A DNA stretch of 64,000 nt from an uncultured Gemmatimonadales bacterium (GTDB lineage: Bacteria; Gemmatimonadota; Gemmatimonadetes; Gemmatimonadales; Gemmatimonadaceae), in NCBI GenBank assembly GCA_963793305.1, contig CAWBZV010000002.1, positions 96,001 to 160,000 on the forward strand, read 5' to 3'. Positions 7,546 to 27,190 of the stretch are shown here, one piece after another. Every line of letters begins with the position of its first letter. Positions within the stretch are counted from its first letter, which is position 1. The notes below the pieces were generated by a model that was not told the DNA's origin, searched no databases, and saw only the letters and a program-made list of their open reading frames with translations. The position numbers and the translations under genes are program-made.

Positions 7546-7658
7546 ACCACGCTCGCCTCGCGGCCGCGGCACGCAGTATGCCGCCACGTATGGGGTCCGG
7601 CCCTAAAATGACCAATATTCCCCCTAAGTCCCCCGGGGGATTTTCCGGAGAAATTTGC

Positions 7659-8315
7659 ATGATCGATCGTGTCCGTCTGGTTACGTGCTTGTTCGCCATT
7701 GTCCTGTGCGCGAGCGTCGCGAGCGAAGCGAGCGCGCAAGCGTGGAACTATCCCGAATTCCAAGCCCCTCGCGTCGTCAGCCGAGAATTCAACTTCGCCG
7801 TATTCTCGAGCGGTGACGGCGGCACCGGCCTGCTCGCGCAGTGGCGCGAAGGCATCGCCCCCGATTTCATCCTCGAGCTCGAGGGCGGCTTCACGAGCCC
7901 GCCACATCATCTTGACACCCACGGCCTGATCGGCGGCTCGATCGGTTACCAGTTGGCGCGTGAATCCAAGGACATTCCGCTCGACTTCCTGCTGACGGGA
8001 GGATTCTACGACGCGTTCGGCAGCCCGAACGAGTTCCGGATCCCGTTCGGGATCTCGATCGGCCATCGATTCCCGATCCAGGGGAGCGCCATGGCGATCA
8101 CCCCGTACATCGAACCACGGCTGTCGATCGACAATTCGCCGGGTAACACAAAGCTCGGCGTCGAGTTCGACATCGGTGGCAGCATGGAATTGACGCCGCA
8201 GATATCCGTACGACTGCTCGGCACGTTCGGCGGGTCGAACGCGATGCCAAATGACCCAGGTATCGGCTTCTCCGTGGCGTGGACGCCGCTCGGATTGACG
8301 GGGGCTCGGAAGTAG
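7659..8315 (+). CDS. Exported hypothetical protein, probable small outer-membrane beta-barrel
   Basis: GGAG before ATG 7659; signal peptide ending ASA-Q; alternating hydrophobic beta-strand pattern (FILELEGG, GSIGYQL, IGFSVAW). Confidence 0.7.
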   Translation: MIDRVRLVTCLFAIVLCASVASEASAQAWNYPEFQAPRVVSREFNFAVFSSGDGGTGLLAQWREGIAPDFILELEGGFTSPPHHLDTHGLIGGSIGYQLARESKDIPLDFLLTGGFYDAFGSPNEFRIPFGISIGHRFPIQGSAMAITPYIEPRLSIDNSPGNTKLGVEFDIGGSMELTPQISVRLLGTFGGSNAMPNDPGIGFSVAWTPLGLTGARK

Positions 8316-11406: not shown

Positions 11407-12534
11407 GTGCGATCAACGCTCGCGGTTGCTCTCTTGTGTGCGAGTCTTGGCGGCGCGGCCCGCGCTCAAGAGACATTCTCGCCTACCATGCAGTTCGGCA
11501 CCGGGTTGATCAACGCGCCGACCGCCTGGATCTCGCCGTCGACGGCGGACTTCTGGATCGACTACTCCGGCCAGCGGATCCCGTCGACCAACCAGCCCCT
11601 GAGCTTCGCGCACGGATGGAACGGGAACGGTGCAATCGAGACCCAGTGGCTCGGCCGCTTCTCGCTGGGCTTCTCGCTCTACAGCAACAATCCGGAATAC
11701 GGGTTCTTCGGATCGCTGCTGGCCCTCAAGGACGGACAGTTCTCGCCACTGCTGCCGGCGATCGCCGTCGGCTTCCGGAACCTCGGGCCCTTCGACCACG
11801 AGGACCGGTTCCTGATCGGGCACGACGTCACGGTCGATACGGTCGGCAACACGCACGGGTTCACGCCGTCGTATTTCGCCCATTTCCATACCAGCCCGAC
11901 GCTCTACATCGTAGCGACGAAGTCGATCAACTTCACGCCGCTGTTCTCCGCGAGCCTCACCCTTGGCGGCGGCGACGGGTTGTTCAGCGACGACGGCGGC
12001 CTGGGGCAGATCTATGACCGGCACGGACAAACGGTCAAAGGCATGTTCTTCGGGACGCAGCTCCAGTTCCACCCGACCAGCGTGGCCAGCATCTCGTTCG
12101 TGGCCGAGAACGACGCGTGGAACTACAATGCCGGGATCCGTGGCGAGTTCCATGGGATCGGCATCGGGATCTATGGCACGGAGCTCGAGGAAGGGAGCAC
12201 GAAGCGGCCGAGCGACTTTCTGATCTACAATTACACCAAAGCCAACTTTGTCGTCTATTATCACGCGAATTTCCGCGACGTTGGCCGGGGCGTATTCCTG
12301 CGCAGTGAGATCACGCAGCTCGAGCACGAACAGACCGAGCTCAAAGCCGAGATGGCGCGGCGCGAGCGGCGCATCCACGATCTCCAAGTCTCCCTCGGCA
12401 AGCTCCAGGGGTCGGCCTTGAGTGACGTGGAACGCCAGCGCCAGGAGCTCGAGGCGCAGCTCAAGGAAGAGCAGGATCAGATTCGTCGGGCCAATGAGCG
12501 GTTGCAGCAACTGCAGGGTGGGAAACCCCAATGA
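11407..12534 (+). CDS. YjbH/GfcD-like outer-membrane beta-barrel protein with C-terminal coiled coil
   Basis: GAGGA before GTG 11407; signal peptide ending ARA-Q; FGTGLINAPTAW, PAIAVGFRN, YIVATK, LGGGDG, AENDAWN motifs reminiscent of YjbH; heptad-rich tail of about 75 aa. Confidence 0.7.
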   Translation: MRSTLAVALLCASLGGAARAQETFSPTMQFGTGLINAPTAWISPSTADFWIDYSGQRIPSTNQPLSFAHGWNGNGAIETQWLGRFSLGFSLYSNNPEYGFFGSLLALKDGQFSPLLPAIAVGFRNLGPFDHEDRFLIGHDVTVDTVGNTHGFTPSYFAHFHTSPTLYIVATKSINFTPLFSASLTLGGGDGLFSDDGGLGQIYDRHGQTVKGMFFGTQLQFHPTSVASISFVAENDAWNYNAGIRGEFHGIGIGIYGTELEEGSTKRPSDFLIYNYTKANFVVYYHANFRDVGRGVFLRSEITQLEHEQTELKAEMARRERRIHDLQVSLGKLQGSALSDVERQRQELEAQLKEEQDQIRRANERLQQLQGGKPQ

Positions 12535-13733
12535 AATTGACGTCAGCACTGGTCGCGGGTCTGGCTTTGACCGCTGCTGTGGCGAGTGGGCAAGAGGAGT
12601 TCGGCCAAACGCGCTTCTGGGGATCGGGATTGATCGACATCCCCACCGCCTGGGTCGAGCCGGTCTCGGGTGACTTCTCGTTCAACTACAGTGGTTCGTC
12701 CTACCAGACCTCGTCCCAATTCCCCCAGTACAACTCGTCGCTGAACTCGAAGCTCAGCCTCAACACGTCGCTGTTCAGCCGCCTGCAACTCGGCGTCTCG
12801 CTGTTCTCGACCAACCCCGAGCAGGCGTTCTATGGCCAGCTCGTGGCGCTCCGGGAAGCCGACACGAAGGGGGGACCGCTCGCATTCCTCCCGTCGCTCG
12901 CGATCGGGGTCCGGAACATCGGGCCATACAGCAAGATCGACCGGTTCGGCCTCGGCTACTCGAACGAGATCAACCCGGCCGGCGGCACCGCTCCGGTGAT
13001 CCGCGCCGACTCCACCCATCAGTCGTTCTCGACGGGCAACACGGTCTACGGAGTCGCGACCAAGAACGTCTCACTCCAGGATCTCATAGCGACGGCGCCG
13101 CCTGTGAACCTCAGCGCCACGGTCGGCTACGGGAATGGCTTATTCAGCAATCACGGAAACCTGCCAACGAAGTACTATGCCGCGGATGCGACCGGTGGCC
13201 TGTTTTATGGTCTCGCCGCGACGTGGCGCCCGTCGACAAACGTCCTGTTTTCCGTCATGGGCGAGAACAACGCCTGGGACTTCAACGCGGGTGCGTCGGT
13301 CGACTGGCGCGGGCTCCGCGCCGGGATCGACGTGATCGACCTCGGCGGCGGCAGTCAAAAGATCAATCCCGCGATCCCGGCCACCGCGCTCTATCATTAC
13401 ACGAAATTCGCCTTCACCCTCGGCTGGCACAGCAACGTCTTTGCGCTCCTCGGCGGGCATCTCCTGGAGGATCGCGCGGCTGCCCTGAAAAAGGAGCGGG
13501 ATGGGCTCCTGGCCGATATCTCCAAGCGGCAAACCCGTATCGCCGAGTTGCAGGGGCTCGTCAAGCAGTACGAAGCTCAGAATCTCCTGGAGCTCGAGCA
13601 GCGGAGAGCCGCGGCTCAGACCCAGTTACAACAGGAAACCGAGGCGCTGCGGCGGCTCGAGGATCGGCTGAAGCGTATCGAATCGCAACAAGGCTCGACC
13701 CCTCCTCCTCCGCAAACGTCGACCCCTCAATGA
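12531..13733 (+). CDS. Second YjbH/GfcD-like beta-barrel paralog with C-terminal coiled coil
   Basis: ATGA overlap; WGSGLIDIPTAW, PSLAIGVRN, YGVATK, VGYGNGLF, GENNAWDFNAG align with the upstream paralog; coiled-coil tail. Confidence 0.7.
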   Translation: MKLTSALVAGLALTAAVASGQEEFGQTRFWGSGLIDIPTAWVEPVSGDFSFNYSGSSYQTSSQFPQYNSSLNSKLSLNTSLFSRLQLGVSLFSTNPEQAFYGQLVALREADTKGGPLAFLPSLAIGVRNIGPYSKIDRFGLGYSNEINPAGGTAPVIRADSTHQSFSTGNTVYGVATKNVSLQDLIATAPPVNLSATVGYGNGLFSNHGNLPTKYYAADATGGLFYGLAATWRPSTNVLFSVMGENNAWDFNAGASVDWRGLRAGIDVIDLGGGSQKINPAIPATALYHYTKFAFTLGWHSNVFALLGGHLLEDRAAALKKERDGLLADISKRQTRIAELQGLVKQYEAQNLLELEQRRAAAQTQLQQETEALRRLEDRLKRIESQQGSTPPPPQTSTPQ

Positions 13734-14431
13734 CACGGGCGATAATTTGGAGCGTCGCGCTGCTGCTCGGCCTGGCCAGTCGCCAGGCCCGGGCGCAGGA
13801 TACGACGAATACCCAAACCTACCCGGAGCGTCGCAAGGCGATCCTCGACGACATCAAGTCATCGCAGCGCAAGCTCGATGACCTTCGGGTCGAGCGGCTG
13901 CAGCTCGAGTCACGGGTCGAAGCCGTGGCGGGCAAAGTCGCCGAGCAGCGCGTCAATGCGCTGCTCATGAGCCGGGAGACGTACGCGCTTCGGCAGCTGG
14001 ACTCGCTGTTGACCGTCTCACAGGATGTCCTGCTCGCCCAGCGCGACCGGTTCCTGACGCTCGGCGACGCCGTCCGCCGGCGGGCGGGTGCCGAGCTGGT
14101 GATCGTGTTCCGAGCGGATTCGGCGTCGACCCTGACCCAGCGCATCGACAGCGCGTCGGTCAGGATCGACGACGGCGCCGGCTCCTCCCGCGTGTACTCG
14201 CTGCTCGCCAACTCGGCGTTGGCGTCGGGCGCCGTGGACGAGCTCTATCGGTCGAACGTGCTCCCGTCTCCCCACACCATTTCGGTGACCGTGGGGCTCA
14301 ACGGCGGAACGCAAACGCAGTCCGTCCGCGTCGACGCCGCCGCTGGCGCCTCGACCTACGTGCAGTTCGCCGTCCGGAATGGACAGTTGGTACAGACGAC
14401 GTGGTCGAACAAAGACGCCTCTTCGCACTAG
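13730..14431 (+). CDS. Exported protein with N-terminal coiled coil and C-terminal beta-rich domain (TPR/ExbBD-cluster accessory protein)
   Basis: ATGA overlap at 13730; signal MTRAIIWSVALLLGLASRQARA-Q; 233 aa. Confidence 0.75.
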   Translation: MTRAIIWSVALLLGLASRQARAQDTTNTQTYPERRKAILDDIKSSQRKLDDLRVERLQLESRVEAVAGKVAEQRVNALLMSRETYALRQLDSLLTVSQDVLLAQRDRFLTLGDAVRRRAGAELVIVFRADSASTLTQRIDSASVRIDDGAGSSRVYSLLANSALASGAVDELYRSNVLPSPHTISVTVGLNGGTQTQSVRVDAAAGASTYVQFAVRNGQLVQTTWSNKDASSH

Positions 14432-16569
14432 GGCTCGCGCTCATCGCGCGAGTCGTCGTTCCAGCGCCGGTCGTCGCGCAGCAACCCGCGACGCCGGCGC
14501 CGGTGCCTGCCGTCCCGAGAGATACCACCGTCATTCCGCCGCTGGACAAAGGCCGCGCGGTCGACGCTGAGATCCGATCGGCACTCTATGCGCTCATGAC
14601 TGGCGACGCGATCGCCGCGCTCAGCCGACTGAGGCCACTGGATCCAGGCACCGAGTCGGCCGAGCGCCACTTCCTGATCGCGGAGTGCTACTACCGCCTG
14701 GGAATGGACGACAGCCTCCGGACAGAGGCGGCGACATTGGCGGCGATGCCGGAAGCCGCGCGCTTCCAGCCGCTTCTGCATGCGCAGCTGCTGCTCGCCG
14801 ATTATCGCGATGGCGACTACGCGCGGGCCGTCGATCAGGCGCGCACGCTCGGACCCGACCAGAGCGGCATCACGTCGCTGCTCGCCGGACTCGCGGCCTA
14901 TCGCCTCGGCCAGGAGCCGGCCGCGAGAAGCGCCTTCGAGGCGGCCCAGGCGACGAGCGGTCCGTACAAGACGTATGCGCAGTACATGTTGACGCTGATG
15001 AGTCTCAAGGCCGACACGGCCCATGGTGTCGCGACGGCTATGCTGGCGCTCGACTCACTCGTCCCCACGGCCCAGAGCCCCTCGTCCGATCAGTTGCACC
15101 TGACGCTCGCGCAACTCGCCTACGAGGGCACCCAGTACGACCGCTCCGCGACCGAGGCCGGCCTTGTGACCGCGACGAGCGGGCTGCGAGCGCCGGCCCT
15201 GCTGACTGGCGCGTGGGCGGCCTATCGCGCCGGCAAGCCGCAGCAGGCCGGCGATCTCTTCGCGACGTACGCGCACGACTATCCGGAGCTGCCCACGCGC
15301 GACGAAGGCCGCCTGATGCACGCCCAAGTCGCTCTCCAGTTGCACCAGGATGACTCGGCCGCGCGCGCCTTCAAGGCGGTCGCCGATTCGGTGTCCGCCG
15401 AGGCCCAGGGTCTTGGCGCCAATGCCTCCGGACTGCGCGGCGGCGCGCGTCTCCTGGTCAATGCGCGCGTCGCCGACGTGCTGCTGCTCGGCGACGTGGC
15501 GGGCGGCAAGGCGGTGAGGTTCCCGGACCTCGCGGTGGGCGGCATCAATGCGTTGCGCATCGCCGTTGGGGATGCCCCGACCCCGACCGTTCCGAGTCCG
15601 ACCCCCGTCTCGGTCGAGACGCTCTCGCAGCGTCTCGACGCCGCCGGCATTGACTCGGCCGGCGCGGCGAAGGGTGGCGTGACGGCCGGAGCACCGCTCC
15701 TCCGGCGCGCCGTGTTCATGCCAACGTCCGATGCCTCACGCGGGGATCTCGCCAAAGGGCTGGCGACGTTGCGCGACGCCGATGTCGGCGTGGCCACGGC
15801 CGATCAGGCCGTGCGATCCGAGAACTCGAACATCCTGCTGCAGGTCGCGAACCTCAAGCGCATGCGCGAGATGATCCAAGGGGCGCAAGACAGCTTGCGC
15901 ACCGGGTTTGGACCGCTCGCCATTGCCGAAGACTCGCTGGCGCGGGTGACCTCGAATGTGGATACGGCCTACTTCACGCTGCATCGGCTGATCGGCGCGA
16001 CGGTCACGGATCTCCGCGACCTGGCGAACGAGAATGCGACAAAGCTCGATAGCGTGCAGCACTCGCTGCAGGCATTGGCTTCGACGGCGGATCTCGCGTA
16101 TCTCCAGCAGGAGCGTGAGACGAACGCCATCTACCGGCGCATCGCCGACGAGGTCGACGCCGGCCTCGACTCCGCGATCGCCCACAATCCCGCGTTCGCC
16201 CTGCGCGACACGGTGCGCCAGCGTGGCGAGCGCACGCGCGCCCTCATCGTGCAGACGCGTGCCGCCGGTGCGGTGGCCGCCGCCGCGGTCGACAGCGCGC
16301 AGGCGCGGGTGGAGCGCGGGCCGTCCGAGACACGCCTCGCACTGCGCGCGGCTCTCGTGGCCGCCCAGGCCCGCCGCGACGCAGCCGCCACGGCGCTCGT
16401 CGTGACCGTCGATCGCGAGCTCACCGCTCGCGGCATCGCGCTCGCCGCGGCCATGCGTCGCGATCTCGAGGCCGCGGAGTTCGGCTCGGCGACCGCCTCG
16501 TTCTTCCGCGCGGTCGCGGCCGATAGCACGGCAAGCCCGGCGGCGGCCCCCTCGGGAAGCGCGCCATGA
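14401..16569 (+). CDS. Exported TPR and coiled-coil protein (GltC-like by position)
   Basis: Signal peptide; TPR helices (HFLIAECYYRLG, LTLAQLAYE, ALLTGAWAAYRAGK); long helical C-terminus; 722 aa. Confidence 0.78.
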   Translation: MVEQRRLFALGLALIARVVVPAPVVAQQPATPAPVPAVPRDTTVIPPLDKGRAVDAEIRSALYALMTGDAIAALSRLRPLDPGTESAERHFLIAECYYRLGMDDSLRTEAATLAAMPEAARFQPLLHAQLLLADYRDGDYARAVDQARTLGPDQSGITSLLAGLAAYRLGQEPAARSAFEAAQATSGPYKTYAQYMLTLMSLKADTAHGVATAMLALDSLVPTAQSPSSDQLHLTLAQLAYEGTQYDRSATEAGLVTATSGLRAPALLTGAWAAYRAGKPQQAGDLFATYAHDYPELPTRDEGRLMHAQVALQLHQDDSAARAFKAVADSVSAEAQGLGANASGLRGGARLLVNARVADVLLLGDVAGGKAVRFPDLAVGGINALRIAVGDAPTPTVPSPTPVSVETLSQRLDAAGIDSAGAAKGGVTAGAPLLRRAVFMPTSDASRGDLAKGLATLRDADVGVATADQAVRSENSNILLQVANLKRMREMIQGAQDSLRTGFGPLAIAEDSLARVTSNVDTAYFTLHRLIGATVTDLRDLANENATKLDSVQHSLQALASTADLAYLQQERETNAIYRRIADEVDAGLDSAIAHNPAFALRDTVRQRGERTRALIVQTRAAGAVAAAAVDSAQARVERGPSETRLALRAALVAAQARRDAAATALVVTVDRELTARGIALAAAMRRDLEAAEFGSATASFFRAVAADSTASPAAAPSGSAP

Positions 16570-19500
16570 GACGCCTCGCGCTGGCCCTCGCGCTCCTCGC
16601 CGCTACTCGCATACTGGCGCAGACGCCGACCGCCACTCCCGTCCGACCGGTCGTCGCGAGAACGCGGCCGGCGACGATCGCGGACTCGGCGATCGTGCAG
16701 CTCGAGTCGCTCCTGCAGCGCTATCCGGATAGCCCGCTCAGACCGGGCGCGTTGTACGAGCTCGGCGAGCTGTTGACCCGTCGGGCCGACGAACGATTCG
16801 CGGCGTCCCAGCGCGTCGACACGACGTCCTCCGGCGCATCGCACCCCGACTATACCGACGCGATCGCGCGCTACGAGGAGATCGTTAAGCGTTTTCCAAC
16901 GTTCGATCAGATCGACGGCGCCGCCTACACCCTGGGCACGCTGTACTCGTTCGACCAGCGCTACGCCGACGCCGTCCCGATGTTCGAGCTCGTGGCCTCG
17001 AAGGACCAGTCGCCGCACAAGCCGGAGGCGCTGTTCCGCCTGGGCGATGCCGAGTTCGAAATCGCGGCGAATCAGAAGGGCGACGCGCGTCTGGCATCGT
17101 TCGGCAAAGCCGCCTCGGCGTACGAGCGCGCCTCGGCTGCATCTCCAGCCAATGGCGATGTCTACTTTCTGTCGCTGTACAAGCTCGGCTGGGCGTACTA
17201 CAACACGGCAACGCCGCAGAACCCCGCCGGGTACAATCAAGCCGTCGAGGTCTTCGGCCGTCTGGTCGATGCGTACGACAAGCTGACACCCGAGCGCCAG
17301 CAACGACTCGGCTTGCGGGAAGAGGCGATCGAGTACATGGCCGTGTCGTTCACGCAAGTCGGCGGCGCGGCCGCGGCCGATAAGTTCTTCGCGGCTCGCT
17401 CGGACAGCGCGTCGCTCAAGATCCCGGTCTTGCGGCGAGTCGCGGCACGGCTGCGTGACCAAGGCGACTTCGCGAAGGCGGTCGACGCGTATCAGGAGCT
17501 TTTGGTCGAAGCACCGGACGACTCATCCGCGCTGAGTACGTCGCGCGAAGTCATCGATATCTACCAGAACCGCACGCTCGAGCCGGAGAAGGCCCAGGCC
17601 GCGCGTATCGCGCTGGTGCAGAAATTCTCGCCGGGCTCGTCGTGGACGGCCGCCAATCCCACGCACGCGAAGGATGTCGAGGCCGCGCGCGAGGAAGTGC
17701 TGCGCCAGAGTGCCCAGTACGAGCTCGCCAAGGCGCAGGGCACCCCCACGCAGCTCGCGCAGGCGCCCAAGCGGCGCACCAAGGGGAAGACGGGCGCGAC
17801 ACCGGCGCAGGAGGCGGTCGCCGTCACGCCGGCGGCGCGCGAGCACTACACCGAGGCCGCGCGTCTCTACGCGATCTATATGTCGGACTACGGCCAGTCC
17901 GACAGCGCCCGCGAGGTGGACATTCACTACGCGGACGCGCTCTATGGCTCCGGCGATTTCCGGAAGGCCGGCACCGAGTACACGCGCGCGGCATTCAATT
18001 TCCCCGCGGATACGTTCCAGACGAGCATCAAGGCGGCCAACCAGCAGTCGGCCCAGAACGCGATCGTCGCCTGGGACTCGGTCACGGCTCACGACACGAC
18101 GGACCGTGCGTCGCAGGACTCGCTCTTCGCCGCGGTCGACAACTATGCGACTCGCTACCCACACAGCGACGTCGCGAAGAAGGCGTTGATCGAGAAGGGT
18201 CGTCGCGCGGCGCAAGGCGGACGGTGGGACGTTGAGGCGCAGACCTTCCGGATCTACGCGTTGCAGTATCCGAACGATCCGTACGCCGCGACCGCCGCCA
18301 AGCAAGTCGGCGACGCGCTCTACAAACAGGGCAAATACGCCGACGCCCAGCTGCAATGGGATTCGGCCGCCGCCACGGCGCGGGCCACGGGCCGGCGCAC
18401 GTTCGCCGACTCGATCAACGGCGTCCAGCAAGGCGCGGCATCGTCGTATGCCGACTCGTTGATCAAGGCCGGCGCGTACGACAAGGCCGCGAAAGAGGTG
18501 TACATCGCGCTCGCCGACAAGAATCCGTCGAGCGAGAAAGCGCCGGATGCGCTCCGCAACGCGATCGAGACGTATATGCTGGCCGATAGCGCCGCGCGCG
18601 CGAAGAGTGACCAGAACGGGTCGCAGGCCGCCCGCGTGCAAGCCGCGAGCTTGTCGAATCGCCTGATTACCGAGTACCCGCTCTATCGCTATCGGCTGCA
18701 GTATCAGACGCTGCACGCGGATCTGCTCGAGGAGATCGGCCAGGGCGATCAGTCGGTGACCGCGTTGCGTCAGATCATCGCCGACAATCCGTCCTGGCGC
18801 GGTCGCGCGGACGCGGAGATCAAAGTCGCCGTGCGGCTCGACTCATTGGGGAAGGGCAAGGAAGCCGCCGCGGCGTACCAGCAGTTCGCGGCCGACTATC
18901 GCCAGGATCCTCGCGCGGCGGACGCGCTGTACAACGCGGCGGTGACCTACGTCCAGGCGCGAGACACGCTGGCGGGCGCCGCGGCCTACGGGACCTTTGT
19001 GGATCGATTCCCGAAAGACTCGCGAGCCGCGCAGGCGCGCGTGTATCGGGTGCAACTGTTGAGGGCTGGCGGGGACAATGCGACGGCGGACGCGGATCTC
19101 AACAGACTCTGCAGTCTGCTTAATCCGCCGGCGGAGTTGAAGGGTGATTGCGCCGCGAGGGCAGGGCGCTCCGCGTTCGATGCCGGCCTGGCCGAGTTCT
19201 TGAGGTATCGCAATGTCAAGCTCGTGATCGCGACGAGGGCGCAGCTCACCGCGGCCGGCGTCAAGCGAGCGGCGGCGTTGAAGCAAAAGAATGCTCGGGA
19301 CGGTCACGGGTGATTTCACGAAAGCCATCGAATCGGGTGATCCCCAGTACCTGGCGGCCGGCTCGTACTACGTCGGTTACGCGCAGTGGGAGTACGGCAA
19401 CTTCTTGAAGAACGTGCAACTGCCCAAGTCTTTGAGTGACGCCGAACGCACGGCTGCCGCCGCGGGAGCCGGGCAGCAGGCGCAGGCGTACTACACGCAG

Positions 19501-19635
19501 GCCGAGAAGACGTGGACCGCGCTGGTCGACAAGGCCACGCAGGACGGCATCACGAATGCGTGGATCGACCTCGCACGCGATGGCACAACTGGCAAGGTAC
19601 CCGATCTGCCTCCAACGCCCGGTGGTCTCAAATGA
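16566..19635 (+). CDS. Large exported TPR protein (GltD/AgmU-like), interrupted by one extra base at ~19290
   Basis: Many TPRs (GALYELGELL, EALFRLGDAEF, SLYKLGWAYY, DALYNAAVTY). Removing one A joins ORF 16566-19313 to ORF 19291-19635 (...KQKMLGTVTGDFTKAI...), giving about 1022 aa that ends in an ATGA overlap with the next gene. Confidence 0.8.
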
Positions 19636-19976
19636 CGCTGCCGCGCGCGGTGTTCATTTTGTTACTTACGCTCGCGTCTGCTACAATCGCATCGGCGCAG
19701 GTAACGAAAAAAAAGCGCCCACCAGCCGTCGCGGCTGCGCAAACGGTCGAAATTCGCGGACAGGTGCCGACGCCGCAGGTCGTCACGGTGCGGCCGAGAG
19801 CCGTTCCCGATTATTCGCGGGGCGTCTTGGTTCCCGCGTTCTATGACCAGCACTTCTGGCCGTCAATTCTGGCGCCGTATCGCGTGGTCCCGACGTTGCC
19901 GAGCGAGTCGGGTCATCGTCCACCGGAGGCGGCGCCGGACACGGCCGCCGCGTCTCCCCCTCCCTCGAGAGAATAG
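19632..19976 (+). CDS. Small exported protein, GltF/CglF-like
   Basis: ATGA overlap; signal peptide ending ASA-Q; VEIRGQVPTPQVVTVRPR resembles the I-x-G-x4-P motif of GltF-like proteins; lies between the TPR gene and the motor genes. Confidence 0.62.
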   Translation: MTLPRAVFILLLTLASATIASAQVTKKKRPPAVAAAQTVEIRGQVPTPQVVTVRPRAVPDYSRGVLVPAFYDQHFWPSILAPYRVVPTLPSESGHRPPEAAPDTAAASPPPSRE

Positions 19977-19979
19977 GCA

Positions 19980-20621
19980 ATGGACGCATTTCTGAAGTGG
20001 TTCCGCGATGGCGGCCCGATCATGTACCCGATTCTGATCGTCGCCCTCTCGGGGTTGGCGATCTTTCTCGAGCGGCTGTACGTGATCGTCTTGCGGTCGC
20101 GCATCAACGGCCCGGCGTTCATCGATCGGGTGATGCAGCTCGTGCGCGCGGGCCGGATCGATGAAGCGATTCGCCTCTGCACGCAATCCAAGGCGACGCT
20201 GCCCGACATGGGTTTGCTCATCCTGCGCTCGAAGAGCCATGACGAGGGCGAGCTCCAGAACGTGGCGGACGCGGCGTCCCTGGCCGTGATCCCGCGGCTC
20301 ACGCGGCGCCTGCAGTATCTCCCGATGCTCGCCAACGTCGCGACGCTGATCGGTCTGTTCGGCACGATCTACGGTCTCCGAGGCGCGTTCGCGTCCGTCG
20401 CGCTCGCCTCGGCAGCCGAGCGCTCGGAGAAGCTGGCGGCCGGTATCGCGATCGCGCTCAACGCGACGGGCTTCGGGCTGCTGACGGCCATCCCGCTGAC
20501 CGTGGGCCACTCGTATCTCTCGGCCCAGGCCGAGCAGATTATCGAGCAGGTCGACGAGTTCTCGGTGCGGCTGATCAACGCGCTCGTCGAACGTCCGGAT
20601 GTCCGCATAGCGACTCGCTAA
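19980..20621 (+). CDS. MotA/TolQ/ExbB proton-channel protein (AglR-like)
   Basis: Three TM segments; NVATLIGLFGTIYGL and GIAIALNATGFGL. Confidence 0.93.
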   Translation: MDAFLKWFRDGGPIMYPILIVALSGLAIFLERLYVIVLRSRINGPAFIDRVMQLVRAGRIDEAIRLCTQSKATLPDMGLLILRSKSHDEGELQNVADAASLAVIPRLTRRLQYLPMLANVATLIGLFGTIYGLRGAFASVALASAAERSEKLAAGIAIALNATGFGLLTAIPLTVGHSYLSAQAEQIIEQVDEFSVRLINALVERPDVRIATR

Positions 20622-20645
20622 TCGAACCCAAGCGGAGCGACCGCC

Positions 20646-21158
20646 ATGGTCACTCGCTTTCATCGAGCGAAAGTCCGTCGCCGCGAGCTCAGTCAGGGCC
20701 AGCTCGGGCACGGCAGCATCAATCTCGTGCCACTGGTCGACATTCTGACGTCGATCGTGTTCTTCTCGCTGGTCACCTATCAAGGCCTCGTTGCAGTTCT
20801 GACCAGCTATGACCTCAGTTTGCCGCCTGTAGTTATCAATGCCCCGCAGGAGGCCTCGAAGCCGGACAACGCGCAGTTGAATCTGCTCCTCGCGGTGCGC
20901 GTGTCGAACGACGGCCTGCTGGTCGAGCACTCGGAAGAGGGCGGGTTCCGCCGTCAAATCAAGGGACTGGACTCGACCTCACTCGACACGCTGCAGGCGC
21001 TCATGGTCGACATCAAGGCGAAGTATCCGCAGAACAACAATGTGATCGTGATCCCGAACGACAATGTCGCCTACGATGATGTGATCCACGTGCTGGAGCG
21101 ATTGAAGGTGGCCAAGTATCCCAACGTGGCGCTCGGCACGAAAGCGCGACAGACCTGA
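20646..21158 (+). CDS. ExbD/TolR-family protein (AglQ/AglS-like)
   Basis: INLVPLVDILT with conserved TM Asp; VAYDDVIHVLE periplasmic motif. Confidence 0.9.
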   Translation: MVTRFHRAKVRRRELSQGQLGHGSINLVPLVDILTSIVFFSLVTYQGLVAVLTSYDLSLPPVVINAPQEASKPDNAQLNLLLAVRVSNDGLLVEHSEEGGFRRQIKGLDSTSLDTLQALMVDIKAKYPQNNNVIVIPNDNVAYDDVIHVLERLKVAKYPNVALGTKARQT

Positions 21159-21160
21159 TC

Positions 21161-21703
21161 ATGGCCAAGACGAGTCGATTCCAACAGTCGCGAGAGGCGC
21201 GCCGCGGCGCCCAGTTCTCCAAGTTCAAGCTGGCCGAGCTGAACCTCGTCCCGCTCGTCGACACGCTGGTGTCGATCGTGTTCTTCGCACTGGTGACGGC
21301 GGTCGTCGGTGAGCTCGCGCCGGTCGTGGCCGGCGTCACGCTGCCGGAATCGAGCGTCGGCGGGAATGCGCTGCAGCAACTCACCCTCGGCGTCGGCGCC
21401 CAGGTCACGGTGGCGAATACGCCGGTCATGAGCACGGTCGACGCGGCCCAGGCCCAGTCGAACATGCCGGGCCAGCCGCTCTTGATTCCGCAGCTCTACG
21501 CGGTGCTCAAGGAGAGAGCGGATTCACTTCGCTCCCAGCGCGGCACGCCCGGGACCGATCCCGTCGACCAGCCGCTGGCGATCCAGGGCGACAAGACGAT
21601 GCACTATGATCTCTTGTCGCGGATCATGCAGACGGCCCGGCTGGCTGGATTCAAGAACATCTCGCTGCAGGTCAAGCGCGTCGGGGGCGCCGGCAACACG
21701 TGA
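21161..21703 (+). CDS. Second ExbD/TolR-family protein (AglQ/AglS-like)
   Basis: LNLVPLVDTLV with TM Asp; IQGDKTMHYDLLSRIMQTARLAGF. Confidence 0.9.
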   Translation: MAKTSRFQQSREARRGAQFSKFKLAELNLVPLVDTLVSIVFFALVTAVVGELAPVVAGVTLPESSVGGNALQQLTLGVGAQVTVANTPVMSTVDAAQAQSNMPGQPLLIPQLYAVLKERADSLRSQRGTPGTDPVDQPLAIQGDKTMHYDLLSRIMQTARLAGFKNISLQVKRVGGAGNT

Positions 21704-22707
21704 CGGCGCCTCAAGGGCCTCGGCCCTCGGGAGCGAGCGCTCAGCCGCCCAAGCGGCGCACCGGCCGCGTCCGCGCGCCGGTCGACGAGACGAGCTTCAC
21801 ACGCGAGCTGCGCCACGAGCTGGCGAGCAGCGAAGGCCGCGCGCTCGTTGTCTCGTCGAGCATCTCGGCCGGCATCGGCTTTATCTGGATCCTACTCGTG
21901 ATCTTCGGTCCACGGACCGAGACCGCTCACCTGTTGTCGGCGGACGAGCGGCCGATCAACGTGACATTCGAGTCGCCGCCGCCCGAGGAGCCCAAAGTCG
22001 CGCCCACGCCGGCCGCGCCAACCGTGTCGAAGCCGACGCCGAAACCCGCCGCTGCCGCCGCCGCTCCGAAACCGTCGGGGCCGACATTGGCGGAAAAGCG
22101 CGCGGCCGCCGCGGCCGCCGCGTTCGGCGCACCGGCTGCGTCGAACGGACCCGTGGGCAATGTCTCGAACGTGCTCCGTGGCGTATCGGTCGCGTCCAAC
22201 TCGCCGGCCACTCCGGGTGCGGCGACGGGCGGGAAGCAGGTGCTCGCGTATGGTCAGGGTGGCGCGGGCTCGCGCACGCCGGGCCGCGACGCCGGCGCTG
22301 GCAGCGGTACCGGGTCGATTGGCGCGGTCCAGGGCACCGGCGGGTTCGGCGCGCAGGCCGTGCGCATCTCGGCGCCGAAGGTGATCGACGCGCCGAGCCT
22401 CGGCGGGCCCTCGCGCGACGTTGGCGAGCTTGGCACGCAGGTGCGCGACCACGAGTCGCAGCTCCGGTTCTGCTACGACGAGTTCGGCTTGAAGGTGAAT
22501 CCGGCACTCGCGGGCAGCGTGACGATCGCGCTGACGCTGACCGGTGGTGGCGCCGTGACGGACGCCAAGATCACCGGCCGCACGTGGAGCGGCCCGGGCG
22601 CCGACGCCACCGAAGCGTGCATCCTGCAGCGCGCGCGCGGGTGGCACTTCCCGGCCTCATCGGCGGGCGGCGGCACCTACGAGTTCAGCTTCAACTTTAC
22701 GAAGTGA
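21700..22707 (+). CDS. TonB-like energy transducer with AgmX/PglI-type C-terminal domain (GltG-like)
   Basis: GTGA overlap; single TM helix; Pro/Ala/Gly linker; C-terminal QLRFCYDEFGLKVNPALAGSVTI...EACILQRARGWHFP. Confidence 0.85.
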   Translation: MTAPQGPRPSGASAQPPKRRTGRVRAPVDETSFTRELRHELASSEGRALVVSSSISAGIGFIWILLVIFGPRTETAHLLSADERPINVTFESPPPEEPKVAPTPAAPTVSKPTPKPAAAAAAPKPSGPTLAEKRAAAAAAAFGAPAASNGPVGNVSNVLRGVSVASNSPATPGAATGGKQVLAYGQGGAGSRTPGRDAGAGSGTGSIGAVQGTGGFGAQAVRISAPKVIDAPSLGGPSRDVGELGTQVRDHESQLRFCYDEFGLKVNPALAGSVTIALTLTGGGAVTDAKITGRTWSGPGADATEACILQRARGWHFPASSAGGGTYEFSFNFTK

Positions 22708-22902
22708 GTCGAAGCGGGCCGCGTAGGCCGGCGTGAACCGCGCCGCCTGCGGGAGTGTATCCATCGCTCTCGCCTCGGCGTTGATTTTCTCCACGTCAGT
22801 AGCGGTGTCCGGCTGCGCGGTGGGCGTCGCCGCTGGTAGCTTTTGCTCTGGCGGCTTGGAGCATGCCGAAGCGACCGCTACCAGGAGTACGACTCGCCAC
22901 AT
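22657..22902 (-). CDS. Small putative lipoprotein (81 aa)
   Basis: MWRVVLLVAVASAC lipobox; fills the ~190-nt gap between the GltG-like and TPM genes. Confidence 0.5.
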   Translation of the reverse strand: MWRVVLLVAVASACSKPPEQKLPAATPTAQPDTATDVEKINAEARAMDTLPQAARFTPAYAARFDSLRKVEAELVGAAARR

Positions 22903-23695
22903 GCTCGGAAATCTGATAGCGATCGCGTTCCTCGTGCAGCAGATCCCGCCACCCGTCGGGGTTGTCAACGATTTCGCGCACGTGCTGACCCCGAGCGCGT
23001 CGGCGCACATCGAGCAGATCGCGAGCAATGTTCGGAACAAGTCGCGGGGCGAGATCGCCGTCGTCACGCTCCGTGACATTGGCGACCAGGATCCGGCTCA
23101 GGTCGCACTCCTGATCGGACGCCAGTGGAAAGTCGGCAAGATCGGGAATCCAGGCGATCCGACGCGGAACGCCGGCGCGGTCATTCTCCTCGTACCGAAG
23201 GAGACGTCGGGCGACGGGCGAGGGCATTGCTTCATCGCCACGGGACAGGGCACCGAAGGGTTCATCACCGACGGCGACGCCGGCGATATCTGCCGCGAGG
23301 CGACACCGGATTTCCGCGATCGCGACTACTCCGACGGACTCGACCTCGTCACGTATCGGACGGCCCAGCGTTTCGCCGATGAGTTTCACTTCACGCTCGA
23401 CACCGCCCTCGCTGTGGCTCGAGGCCCCGAGTCTGGCGGCGGCTCGGCGGCGCCATTTCAGATCACGCCAACTGAGCTCTTCGTTGGCTTCATCGTCATC
23501 TTCTTTCTTCTGCGCCTCCTGGTCGGGAGAGGCGGGCGTGGGTGTGGGTGCGTTCCGATACCGCTTTTCTTCGGAGGAGGCGGCGGCGGTGGTGGCTGGT
23601 CCGGTGGGGGCGGGGGCGGGGGTGGAGGGGGTGGCTTCGGTGGATTCGGCGGTGGAGGAGGATTCGGTGGTGGCGGTGGCGGCTCTAGCTGGTAA
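22901..23695 (+). CDS. TPM-domain (TLP18.3/Psb32/MOLO-1) membrane protein with Gly-rich tail
   Basis: VVNDFAHVL, EIAVVTL, WKVGK...NAGAVILL, GQGTEGFITD, TM helix, GGFGGFGGGGGFGGGGGGSSW. Confidence 0.9.
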   Translation: MLGNLIAIAFLVQQIPPPVGVVNDFAHVLTPSASAHIEQIASNVRNKSRGEIAVVTLRDIGDQDPAQVALLIGRQWKVGKIGNPGDPTRNAGAVILLVPKETSGDGRGHCFIATGQGTEGFITDGDAGDICREATPDFRDRDYSDGLDLVTYRTAQRFADEFHFTLDTALAVARGPESGGGSAAPFQITPTELFVGFIVIFFLLRLLVGRGGRGCGCVPIPLFFGGGGGGGGWSGGGGGGGGGGGFGGFGGGGGFGGGGGGSSW

Positions 23696-23703
23696 GATTC
23701 GGC

Positions 23704-24426
23704 GTGCCTGCAAAGACTGACGCCGAGACGGCGCTCGCTGATCTCGTTCAGCAGATGGAGCGCGTCTGGGAGCGCGGCCTGTCTGCTGTGCTCCTTTACG
23801 GCTCAGGAGCAGGCGGCGAGCACATTGCTGGCCGGTCCGACTACAACGTGCTCGTTCTAGTCGACTCGGCCCCGCTCGAAAAGCTGCGAGGGGCCGAGGC
23901 GGCGCTTCGTGGCTGGAGGGCGGCGGGGCATTCGCCGCCGCAGGTCATGACGGTCGAAGAGTGGCGGACAGGCGCCGACGCGTTCCCGATGGAGTACGCG
24001 GATATCCTGGCTCGGCATCGTGTGCTAACCGGTGAACCGCCTTTCGCCGGTATCGCGGTCCGCGCGACGGATCTCCGGCTGCAGCTCGAACACCAGGCCA
24101 GGTCGACGCTCCAGCGTCTGCGCCGGCGGCTCCTGGGGACGTCAGCCGAAACGCATCGTGACGTTTTGGCCGATAGCGTGAGAGAGGTGATGATCGTCTT
24201 CCGTGCGAGCGAACGTTTGCATGGGGCGACGCCGCCAACGGAGAACGACGCGTTGGCGAATGCGGTGGCGGGGCGGGTGGGATTCGACCCCGGGCCGTTC
24301 CTGCGCGCCGTGCAGCACGTCCGCTCCGCTCCGAAGCTCTCCGCTCGCGAAGCGACGGATGTGCTCTCCGGCTATCTGGTCGGGCTGGAGCGCCTGGTCA
24401 CTTATCTCGACGCCTACGAAGCATGA
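23704..24426 (+). CDS. Nucleotidyltransferase-fold protein
   Basis: VLLYGSGAGG...SDYNVLVLV Pol-beta-type motif (second Asp replaced by Asn); ADAFPMEYADI; LRLQLEHQAR. Confidence 0.75.
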   Translation: MPAKTDAETALADLVQQMERVWERGLSAVLLYGSGAGGEHIAGRSDYNVLVLVDSAPLEKLRGAEAALRGWRAAGHSPPQVMTVEEWRTGADAFPMEYADILARHRVLTGEPPFAGIAVRATDLRLQLEHQARSTLQRLRRRLLGTSAETHRDVLADSVREVMIVFRASERLHGATPPTENDALANAVAGRVGFDPGPFLRAVQHVRSAPKLSAREATDVLSGYLVGLERLVTYLDAYEA

Positions 24427-24929
24427 AAAAGGTTCTGTTTCTCGCCCTGACAGCCGCCCTCGCCTGTCACAAAGACAAGCAGCCGCCCGCGACTGCGTCC
24501 GTACCACCGGTCGACACCACACCGGTTGACCTGTCCAAGGTGCAGACCGCGCTGCCCAAAGCAGCACCCGATACGTTCACGCCGCCTCCAAAGCCGAAGA
24601 GCGACGTCGTCCAGGCGCCGGATTTTCCACCCGCGCCCGAGCCGCTGATGGCGTCCGTCAATCGCGAATCGGCGTTCTCCCGGTTTTGTTTCGAGGAGTA
24701 CGGAGAGAAGTTGGATCCGACGCTCCGTGGCGGGGTGGCGATGCTCGTGACGGTCAGCGCCCAAGGCGTGAGCGATGCGAAAGTCGCGAACTCGCGTTGG
24801 TCGTCGAAGCAGCCCGGCGCCGGCGTCGATCAGTGTCTCAACGAGAAAGCCAAGCTCGCGTGGAAGCTGGAACCTGGTGAAGTCCGCTCGGGCCAATACG
24901 TCGTGCAGATGAGTTTCCGGGGGAGTTAA
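24423..24929 (+). CDS. Lipoprotein with AgmX/PglI-like (TonB-C-like) domain
   Basis: MKKVLFLALTAALAC lipobox; Pro-rich linker; RFCFEEYGEKLDPTLRGGVAM...DQCLNEKAKLAWKL parallels the C-terminus of 21700-22707. Confidence 0.75.
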   Translation: MKKVLFLALTAALACHKDKQPPATASVPPVDTTPVDLSKVQTALPKAAPDTFTPPPKPKSDVVQAPDFPPAPEPLMASVNRESAFSRFCFEEYGEKLDPTLRGGVAMLVTVSAQGVSDAKVANSRWSSKQPGAGVDQCLNEKAKLAWKLEPGEVRSGQYVVQMSFRGS

Positions 24930-25498
24930 TGAAAGCGTCGCGCATGGTCGTCGCCGGTTTGATGCTGTCACTCACAGGCTGCGGATACAATCAGATCCAG
25001 CAGTTGGATGAGTCGGCGGCGCAGGCGCAGAAGAACATCGAGGTGCAGCTCCAACGCCGGTCGGATCTGATCGGAAACCTCGTCGAGACCGTGAAGGGAC
25101 AGTCGAAGCAGGAGCTCGCCGTGTACACGGACGTGGCGAAGGCGCGCGCCGGAGTGACGGATGCTATCTCGAGTCACGACCCGGCGCGCGAGGCCGACGC
25201 GAACCTGCAATTGTCATCACAATTGACGATCCTGAATCGCTCTGTAACGGAAGCGTACCCGCAGTTGAAGTCGGATCAGGCGTACCTTCGGCTTATGGAT
25301 GAGCTGACGGGTACGGAGAACCGCATCGCGACGGCCCGGACCGACTACAATCAAGCGGTTGAGACGTACAATGCGTATATCCGGCAGTTCCCGCAGGTCG
25401 TCACCGCACGTCTCTCCGGGTCCAAGCCGCGTGCGTACTTCACGGCAACTGCTGCCGCGCAGGAAGCACCCAAGGTCGACTTCTCGACGAAGCCGTAG
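24929..25498 (+). CDS. lemA: LemA family protein
   Basis: GCGYNQIQ, QLQRRSDLIGNLVETVKG, EAYPQLKS, ELTGTENRIATARTDYN. Confidence 0.95.
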   Translation: MKASRMVVAGLMLSLTGCGYNQIQQLDESAAQAQKNIEVQLQRRSDLIGNLVETVKGQSKQELAVYTDVAKARAGVTDAISSHDPAREADANLQLSSQLTILNRSVTEAYPQLKSDQAYLRLMDELTGTENRIATARTDYNQAVETYNAYIRQFPQVVTARLSGSKPRAYFTATAAAQEAPKVDFSTKP

Positions 25499-27009
25499 CC
25501 TTCTCTTTTTCGTCACGCCGATCCTCGCGGCGTGCCACGACGTCACCGGCACCAGAATCTTCCAGCCGCCTCCCGACACGGCGACGGTGCGCGTGTTGGC
25601 CGAGACGTACCAGAGTCTCGAGAACGATCAGATGCAGGAGTGGGAGGGGACGCTCGGGATGCCCGTCGGCCTCTACACCCAGCAGATGGCGGGGATCGCG
25701 GCGCAGCCCGAGGCGTTCGATCTGTATCGATTCCTCGCGGTCGACGCCGATCCGGGGTTCCAGGCGATTCTCGCGTCGGCGATGAGCGCGCGGACCATCC
25801 AGACGCTCGGGCACAAGATCAACGACTCGCTGTGGGTCGGCATCGGCAAAGTCTGGGAGGCCGCGGCGGTCGGCGATGCCGCATTCGATCTGGGGCGCGA
25901 TCCCGTACACGCAGGCGTTTGATCGGGCGCACTACCCCGATCCCGAGTTCGACCCGCAGCCTACCGTCTATCAGATGGTCGATGCGCAACTCGACTCGGC
26001 GATCCGGTACTATCTCGCGGCTCGAAACGCATTGCCGCGCGGACCGGACACGGCGGAGCTCATCTATCGTGGGCAGCCACCGGAGTCGTTGGCCACGATC
26101 TATACGGAAGTCGCGCACACCCTGCGCGCGCGATACGATCTCCATCGCTCGGGCAGCGATCCGTCATTCTACGCGCTGGCGCTCCAGGAAGCGCAGCAGG
26201 GGATCTCCGATCCGCGGCACGACTGGAATTGGTACAACGACGGCACCGAGCCGCAGAACAACGCGACGTACACGCTCGTGACCGGCCATAGCGCCGGACA
26301 GCTCGCGCCCTCGGCCACGCTGATCAATCTCATGCACCAGCGGATGGCCGAAGGGCTCGACGCGAATCAGGATCGACTCGATTTCTACTTCGTGAGCCTG
26401 GTCAATGCGTCGCTTTCGTGCGACTCGACGTGTGTGGGATTCCGGCCGGGCGGCAATGTGGCCGAGCCGGGGGGTGCCGGGACGTCCGATTTCGACCTGC
26501 TGAATTTCGGCGCCGGATTCCGGCAGCCGTATGTCACGTGGACTGAGACGCAGTTGATCGTGGCCGAGGCGGCGCTGGCGACGGGGAATGCGCTGCTCGC
26601 GGAGCGGGCGCTGACAGCGGTGCGAGCGCACGAGGTGTATGGTGCCGACGTGAGTGGAGACCGGCTCGCGTCCGGTTCCGTCGCCTGTGGTGGCCCGTGT
26701 ACGTTCGTCACACAACGGCCGGTCCCGGCGACGCTTCGCAACATTATAGAAGAGAAGTACATTGACTTGTTTCTGAGCGCCGAGGTCTGGTCGGACTTCA
26801 GACGCACGTGTTTGCCGTACATCGCGGCGGCGCCGGCGACCGTGACGGATTCGGTCCCGCGCGCCGGGAGCTTGCCCGAGCGATTCCCGTACGGGGAGAC
26901 GATAGCGGCCGATCCCAACACGCCGATCGTCGCCCCGACCGCCCACAACGCGGATTCTCCGCGGATGTGTCCGTCGTATTCTTTCTTCGGGACTCCGGCA
27001 GCGTACTGA
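25431..27009 (+). CDS. SusD/RagB-like lipoprotein, paralog of 30515-32113, interrupted by one extra base at ~25884
   Basis: ILAAC lipobox; YTQQMAG. Removing one T gives GDAASIWGAIPYTQAF, matching the paralog's GEAASIWGAVPYSQAF. Start uncertain (GTG 25431 overlaps lemA). Confidence 0.8.
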
Positions 27010-27043
27010 CTAGACTGTATTCTGTCAGTTTGCTAACCACTTC

Positions 27044-27072
27044 TTGACACAGTCGGCTGCCGCCCGTAACGT
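27044..27072 (+). promoter_or_regulatory. Sigma70-type promoter of susC1
   Basis: TTGACA-N17-TAACGT. Confidence 0.65.
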
Positions 27073-27085
27073 GGCGCACCGCCAA

Positions 27086-27134
27086 CGACTACGTCCGTAG
27101 TACTACGCAGTTAGTACTAGGGAAATAGTAGTCG
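27086..27134. promoter_or_regulatory. Nested palindromes, probable operator or 5'-UTR hairpin
   Basis: CGACTAC (27086-27092) pairs with GTAGTCG (27128-27134), enclosing the perfect palindromes CGTAGTACTACG (27096-27107) and TAGTACTA (27112-27119). Confidence 0.5.
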
Positions 27135-27190
27135 CCCACCAGGCGGGGTCATTCGCTCCTCCACTCTTACTGCGAGGTGCCGCGAGACCC

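Follow-up and report, generated by a model that had tools for sequence, protein, structure and literature searches.

The Agl-Glt gliding machine of Myxococcus xanthus and the related Nfs system are the closest described relatives of the gene cluster that we analyze here. According to the main text of Luciano 2011 (PMC3169522), the core complex of this family consists of aglR, aglQ, aglS, gltC, gltD, gltE, and gltG plus one extra gene; gltF lies outside the core and is restricted to Myxococcales and Bdellovibrionales, and the core alone is considered unlikely to drive motility. In the available text of Wartel 2013 (PMC3858216), Agl-Glt and Nfs move surface polymers and do not secrete them, and Agl-Nfs moves surface polymer without MreB; an AlphaFold-based model of the M. 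xanthus machine is given in the accessible text of Cambillau and Mignot 2025 (PMC11761067). The role of the core outside myxobacteria has been open since 2011, as far as the available texts go (PMC3169522, PMC3858216). Our cluster occupies 11407-22707 of a 64,000-nucleotide stretch of DNA (the window; contig CAWBZV010000002.1, positions 96,001 to 160,000, assembly GCA_963793305.1) from an uncultured Gemmatimonadales bacterium. It comprises ten genes on the plus strand, g1 to g10, and an eleventh, g11, lies just downstream.

When the cluster is set beside these systems, it very probably belongs to the Agl-Glt family as a distant, trimmed variant, as judged from sequence and gene order. Like the Agl-Glt core, it combines in a single operon one MotA-type and two distinct ExbD-type genes, a GltG-like gene, GltC-like and GltD-like tetratricopeptide repeat (TPR) genes, and an accessory gene encoding a coil plus a sandwich; unlike the core, it is without GltE, includes a weakly GltF-like gene as well as a pair of coiled-coil barrels, and in some lineages fuses GltC to GltD. 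Since GltE is missing, we do not file the cluster as a member of the published core, and it probably works like a published-core machine. We propose, with a probability of about one half, an Agl-Glt-type machine without GltE in which proton flow would drag predicted outer-membrane barrels and bound surface material along the envelope. A literature search, supplements outside its scope, returned no paper describing this cluster. The terms "Gemmatimonas" and "Gemmatimonadetes" are absent from the main text of PMC3169522, whose supplement (Fig. S1, Tables S2-S3) could list further taxa, and gemmatimonad terms are absent from the available texts of PMC12204202 and PMC9946355. The variant carries the Agl-Glt family into another phylum.

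Kinship of the motor and scaffold genes

The ten genes follow one another in the order given by an earlier reading of the sequence alone (the first-pass annotation), and their junctions from g1 to g10 (-4 with ATGA, -4, -31, -4, -4, +3, +24, +2, and -4 with GTGA) were all reproduced from the open reading frames (ORFs) of the window. The g7 gene (19980-20621; 213 residues) encodes a MotA/TolQ/ExbB-family stator subunit of the AglR type that matches MotA_ExbB (PF01618) at 78 bits, with Thr129 and Thr163 invariant in 16 sequences. The ExbD/TolR-family subunits 1 and 2 are encoded by g8 (20646-21158; 170 residues) and g9 (21161-21703; 180 residues), which match PF02472 at 46.5 and 60.2 bits. That these are two different ExbD proteins, each with the transmembrane (TM) aspartate, had been claimed from the window and extends to its relatives, where the aspartate is found in 150/150 motif matches across 94 related loci. 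Among distant matches, the best for g8 is the first ExbD of Glt-like clusters and the best for g9 is the second.

In a quick IQ-TREE phylogeny of 51 rows, g7 forms one group (SH-like approximate likelihood ratio test 99) with the relic motA genes described below and three MotA sequences of Glt clusters, and this group stands apart from the ExbB and TolQ of E. coli and from the other MotA-family rows of Gemmatimonadota; M. xanthus AglR is not among the rows, and three outgroup rows (L247, L249, L251) are wrong, being non-homologous ORFs. The scores of a g7 hidden Markov model (HMM) divide in the same way, at 135-175 bits for the three Glt-cluster MotAs vs at most 99 for other MotA-family rows. 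The position of the motor relative to canonical clades had been named beforehand as a test, and g7 lies outside the ExbB/TolQ sequences sampled. The genome holds two further MotA-family genes. A Vibrio alginolyticus plasmid (NZ_CP013488.1; L270:1621-13733) carries genes for an Ig-like protein and an outer-membrane barrel, four hypothetical genes, motA, a hypothetical gene, exbD, a 318-residue gene, and a transglutaminase-like peptidase gene; against the g7 profile its MotA reaches 106 bits, the remaining genes give weak matches or none, and the stretch may represent another motor-barrel variant.

The last gene, g10 (21700-22707; 335 residues), encodes a GltG-like transducer with about 50 residues before a single TM helix, no FHA domain, a Pro/Gly-rich linker, and a C-terminal AgmX/PglI domain. 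This last domain, recognized in the first reading, matches NF033768 at 53.9 bits (cut-off 40). The GltG model NF033760 scores 44 bits, far below its whole-protein cut-off of 650, with residues 156-327 aligned to profile positions 480-637. Five longer proteins were retrieved with the g10 profile; four of them were scanned and all match GltG, three above the NF033760 cut-off. Among 44 orthologues, Cys258 never varies and Cys307 is at least 90% conserved, and the C-terminal domain is TonB-like (TIGR01352, E 0.016). A search of PDB sequences with the g10 profile gave nothing significant.

Because direct searches with the NCBIfam models for GltC (NF033756), GltE, and CglF (NF033764) were empty at the locus, we bridged to the known systems through distant proteins. 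A length-restricted g5 search led to TPR proteins of 1100-1300 residues with colinear matches, some labelled Deltaproteobacteria, Polyangiales, Myxococcales, or Kofleriaceae; the next clusters in the ESM Atlas, of ~935 residues in Pseudomonadota and 1100-1150 residues in Myxococcota, serve as a lead only. In 33 metagenome loci of the bridge proteins the order is accessory-gltC-gltD-gltE-gltF-gltG-like, and 73 selected proteins from such loci match the GltC, GltE, CglF, and GltG models below their cut-offs. In three loci (L213, L214, L216) the motor genes sit between the gltF-like and gltG-like genes; in five others (L223, L225, L226, L232, L233) one or two ~200-residue genes with faint g7-profile matches lie there. 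The profiles of g3, g4, g6, g7, g8, g9, and g10 each match the gene at the corresponding position in distant clusters.

The clearest scaffold link is that of g5 (16566-19635), a GltD-like TPR protein of 1022 residues in relatives and split in this assembly. Its alignment against the GltD-like proteins (hhalign) gives a probability of 100% and E 5e-52 end-to-end over 883 columns, which answers the question, posed in advance, of whether the large TPR protein resembles GltD, and reciprocally a GltD-like HMM ranks g5 first among the 38,571 ORFs of the genome; the GltD label of the bridge proteins rests on their position between gltC-like and gltE-like genes. For g4 (14401-16569; 722 residues), a TPR plus long helical protein, the alignment against GltC-like proteins gives a probability of 98.5% (E 4e-15) and that against GltE-like proteins 38%. 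The GltC link has two steps, in that the syntenic proteins themselves match NF033756 at E 4e-12 to 2e-30, below its cut-off. There is nonetheless a good case from sequence that g4, which the first-pass annotation left unassigned, is a GltC-like gene. The two genes share one reading frame in 12/80 loci, and a distant group of proteins (P0319, P0321, P0323, P0325, P0326, P0329, P0364; 1585-1685 residues) joins a g4-like N-terminal half (probability 97%) to a g5-like half; these fusions fit a single complex and support direct C-D coupling. No viral contig was found with the distant fused TPR alignment.

The flanking members are linked more weakly. The g3 gene (13730-14431; 233 residues) encodes an exported protein that is weak kin of the accessory gene upstream of gltC (hhalign probability 65%, E 6e-5), and at least 14 of the 17 HMM matches among 2169 ORFs lie at the syntenic position. 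The product of g6 (19632-19976; 114 residues) is a small exported protein, weakly GltF/CglF-like and conserved in its strand-helix core: it occupies the syntenic position, aligns weakly with GltF-like proteins (probability 42%, E 3e-4), and is the sole match in the genome of a GltF-like HMM, weak at E 0.41. A deeper g6 profile, built from 68 sequences, missed the GltF-like genes. The GltF link drawn in the first reading is weak: position, alignment, and the sole genome match speak for it, and the empty NF033764 search and the deeper profile speak against it. As for gltE, neither the window nor any of the 80 loci has a gene separating g5 from g6, and genome-wide there are only partial generic TPR matches elsewhere, although an unlinked, diverged GltE could have been missed. 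The operon can thus persist without GltE.

Taken gene by gene, the proposed kinship with Agl-Glt stands as strong for the GltD-like gene, good for the GltC-like and GltG-like genes, and weak but syntenic for the GltF-like and accessory genes. The earlier list of core genes needs amending, since gltF is not core and gltC and gltE belong to the published core (PMC3169522, main text). Compared with M. xanthus Agl-Glt and Agl-Nfs, the cluster has homologues of AglRQS, GltC, GltD, GltG, and perhaps GltF, and a barrel pair heads it as gltA-gltB do; it differs in that no GltE, GltJ, or CglB was found, g10 lacks cytoplasmic FHA domains, and the motor is encoded inside the operon. Neither GltJ nor CglB gave anything near cut-off in the 92%-complete genome. 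The metagenome clusters L207-L239 share the order accessory, C, D, F, followed in L213, L214, and L216 by motor and G, but keep a GltE-like gene, have no g1/g2-type barrel within 10 kb, and appear from their sequences to encode an accessory protein with a shorter coil than g3; the cluster of their seed protein contains members labelled Deltaproteobacteria. The system resembles TonB-ExbBD and TolA-TolQR in its stator, which is of the MotA/ExbD family, and in its transducer, which crosses the membrane once and ends in a TonB-like domain; unlike them it has two different ExbDs, a large TPR scaffold, and a separate clade, and its operon contains no TonB-dependent receptor, TolB, or Pal.

Three states of one chromosomal site

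A scan of GTDB genomes for g5 relatives yielded 349 stretches, and our locus counts use the best 80 of these, all from Gemmatimonadota metagenome-assembled genomes (MAGs); the source phylum had been guessed correctly from the window. Every detected gene has the same order across the 80 loci, so the synteny that had been singled out beforehand as a test is conserved, and three of the 80 lack the barrels. All 80 named carriers retrieved are MAGs, with no cultured carrier identified among them. Named g3 homologues are almost all from Gemmatimonadaceae, with one labelled Candidatus Elarobacter; for Candidatus Eisenbacteria, the Atlas has a cluster that looks like g3. Across a sample of the phylum, g5 is present in 15/71 Gemmatimonadaceae genomes vs 0/229 genomes of 11 other families. 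In a family sample of 201 genomes, 72 have a close g7 match, which, minus eight genomes of two relic genera, leaves 64 carriers; the genome counts include the unpublished genomes G012, G445, and G432. The cluster is a real, conserved, and lineage-restricted Agl-Glt variant.

The same chromosomal site is found in three states: the full operon, a barrel-less operon, and a lone-motA relic, which together amount to a natural deletion series. The barrel-less state comprises seven loci from about three lineages in which dsbA adjoins g3, and barrels were not found genome-wide in G003, G009, and G041. In six relic loci of two genera (L166-L171; G439, G376, G380, G409, G358, G426), all that is left of the operon between dsbA and the TPM-domain gene is a diverged motA. 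The relic motA is a full-length open frame, and the six relics form one branch in the MotA tree; the gene may have found a new partner, or may be decaying.

This series also draws in g11 (24423-24929, plus strand), overlooked in the first-pass annotation, which encodes a predicted lipoprotein with a second AgmX domain (NF033768, E 3e-4) and lies inside a cluster of TPM, nucleotidyltransferase, and LemA genes. We assign it to the system because it is present in 41/41 operon loci that reach lemA and absent from 6/6 relic loci. With eleven genes and an internal motor, the system is a compact candidate for reconstitution.

Barrels, force path, and output

The two genes at the head of the operon encode a pair of paralogues, about 33% identical: g1 (11407-12534; 375 residues) is a predicted outer-membrane beta-barrel of 12 strands that also has an N-terminal segment and, at its C-terminus, a coiled coil of ~75 residues, and g2 (12531-13733; 400 residues) likewise joins a barrel to a coiled coil. 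The AlphaFold model of g1 (pLDDT, the predicted score of the local distance difference test, 66.5) shows 12 strands with a helical hairpin at the C-terminus, and its best fold matches are KdgM (Z16.3), FapF (Z16.2), and a COG4313 channel (Z15.1). Profile scans matched no Pfam barrel family to either protein. Of 194 barrel relatives found among the 1.8 billion representatives searched, 40 were scanned, five with an OmpA domain and none with a Pfam barrel family. Distant relatives (P0193-P0263) end in OmpA or unrecognised domains and lack the coiled coil, which suggests, on the sequences, that the barrel was recruited through a tail swap.

The barrels had been called YjbH-like, and this identity finds no support in Pfam: PF06082 has no candidate in the genome, while an E. 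coli control matched, YjbH is absent at E 0.001 among the 40 barrel relatives, and it is not among the 25 of 95 families listed for 16 barrel sequences. The two proteins presumably share an N-terminal motif with YjbH. TIGR04565, which we take to be the model covering GltA/B/H, has no match at the locus; g1 and g2 match neither of the two references compared, this model and the barrels of the distant clusters. The g1/g2 pair occurs in 54/201 family genomes, 53 of them operon carriers and the other (G191) holding part of g5. The g3 model (pLDDT 83.6) is a ~90-residue helix plus a beta-sandwich, for which a fold search gave only weak transthyretin-like matches (TM-score about 0.3), from which we take no function. 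The helix is short or diverged in 6/7 barrel-less loci (about three lineages) vs 1/66 barrel-bearing loci.

By analogy with the M. xanthus model, in the accessible text of PMC11761067, five g7 subunits together with a g8/g9 heterodimer would make up the stator, the TM helix of g10 would contact this stator, and the Gly-rich linker and AgmX domain of g10 would wrap the GltD-like scaffold g5; beneath the outer membrane, g10 would be connected to the GltC-like g4 by a strand of g6. Force would then pass from the stator to g10, on to g5, via g6 to g4, and finally to the barrels. To this we add a new element, in which the C-terminal coiled coils of g1 and g2 and the long g3 helix would form one bundle and so tether the barrels to g4. 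The g11 protein and exported AgmX-tailed proteins encoded at other places in the genome would dock on g5, as predicted for the domain of GltJ.

Dragging of barrels and surface material is the best reading because Agl-Nfs moves polymer without MreB (PMC3858216, available text) and the cluster lacks the cytoplasmic couplers tested. Several observations weigh against it. The direct NCBIfam models are silent at the locus, the distant reference clusters are unnamed contigs scoring below NCBIfam cut-offs, the GltC-like HMM gives g4 no more than third rank among the genome's 38,571 ORFs, and none of these ORFs matches the accessory-gene HMM. The barrels were not found in 11/64 carriers (two with contigs ending inside g5), and since seven loci also have dsbA directly beside g3, barrels cannot be the sole output; one barrel-less lineage (L068) retains the whole g3 helix. 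The conserved neighbourhood (dsbA-like, kdtA, and EAL genes upstream; TPM, nucleotidyltransferase, and lemA genes downstream) contains no cargo, adhesin, or polysaccharide gene. Flagellin is mostly missing in carriers, which favours a motility role. The earlier description of a system with its own outer-membrane module holds in that two predicted barrels head the operon, but the module is dispensable in several carriers and so only partly essential.

The strongest competitor takes the cluster for a minimal gliding motor, serving soil Gemmatimonadaceae in place of flagella, with the barrels or some adhesin gripping the substrate, a proposal we regard as unlikely but not negligible. Flagellin is found in 6/64 carriers vs 78/137 other family genomes (by genus, 6/25 vs 24/35), but the Fisher p of 0.0014 overstates this contrast, as kin are not independent, and flagellin is also missing in 59/137 non-carriers. 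Among habitat-labelled holders, a peat metagenome and an urban one have the top shares, and soil accounts for ten more. The cluster also keeps a GltF-like gene, which Luciano 2011 (PMC3169522, main text) placed only in Myxococcales and Bdellovibrionales. On the other side, Roadblock/MglB-like genes occur in carriers and non-carriers alike (5/5), and GltE is lacking; because g10 has no FHA domain and no GltJ or CglB was found, Nfs-like surface transport is a more likely output than Myxococcus-type gliding. A more elaborate version is somewhat less probable again: a GltE-less, cytoskeleton-independent motor that would provide flagellum-free surface movement for about a third of Gemmatimonadaceae, acting via a three-chain coiled-coil tether to 12-stranded barrels and taking interchangeable periplasmic partners through AgmX tails.

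The AgmX tails also underlie a doubtful alternative, in which the domain is a tag and the motor pulls g5-docked, AgmX-tailed exported proteins to position or export them. AgmX scores above cut-off in 17/301 phylum genomes, 16 of them g5 carriers, and the NCBIfam name of the domain is myxo_SS_tail. The extra copies in carriers are exported proteins with a signal peptide, a domain of ~125 residues, a Pro/Ala linker, and an AgmX tail, or short AgmX-only proteins, and g11 is co-deleted with the operon in 6/6 relic loci. The N-domain of the tailed proteins is matched in 31/201 family genomes, and all 26 strong matches are carriers, but the search is biased by seeds drawn from carriers, and related genomes do not count as independent. 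Strong matches reach only 26/64 carriers, the five weak ones include genomes without a g7 match, and in one non-carrier a weak relative (L203) carries a TonB-type tail as a fusion. For folded cargo, a barrel of 12 strands is narrow, and the barrels are in any case dispensable. The AgmX domains might be docking tags for several partners. A plasmid search with the AgmX domain gave no match. This genome's own AgmX-tailed protein (G000:C5, about 662300-663700; L161:4316-5711) is split across frames and is intact in G001.

Least probable, if only slightly so, is a Ton/Tol-like device that opens plugged barrels for small-solute uptake or stabilises the outer membrane: the barrels resemble the small channels KdgM, FapF, and COG4313, 5/40 scanned distant relatives carry OmpA domains, and the C-terminal domain of g10 is TonB-like, but the genome has two other MotA-family genes, g7 lies outside the sampled ExbB/TolQ, and the system persists without barrels and is patchy (64/201 family genomes), unlike the essential Tol.

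The g5 reading frame and neighbouring genes

The ~1022-residue TPR ORF of the first-pass annotation is not encoded by the window as assembled, in which one extra base at 19290 splits g5 into ORFs of 915 (16566-19313) and 114 residues (19291-19635). Two genomes that are 98-99% identical lack this base and encode a g5 of 1022 residues, and it is absent from all covering contigs in 2/4 DNA runs (the other two are without coverage) and 4/4 RNA runs; one covering contig without the base differs by four substitutions over 1125 bases. The extra base is most likely an assembly error. Programmed frameshifting and a pseudogene were rejected, since the relatives and all covering DNA and RNA contigs lack the base. 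More apparent frameshifts lie at 25359-28747, in genes that we read from the sequence as lipoprotein-like (near 25359/25876) and TonB-dependent-receptor-like (from 27191), which suggests an indel-prone assembly. Metatranscriptome contigs from four soil studies, mostly from relatives, overlap parts of the cluster and, lacking a silent control stretch, give no measure of expression.

Upstream, at 7578-8315, the window encodes a 245-residue exported protein without a Pfam or NCBIfam match that is barrel-like by eye and lies upstream of an EAL gene in close relatives too. Downstream, at 22733-25498, genes for a TPM-domain protein, a nucleotidyltransferase-like protein, and LemA come after the operon, in its orientation and tightly joined. 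These genes remain where the operon has been lost, and in some relatives 4-6 kb are inserted before them.

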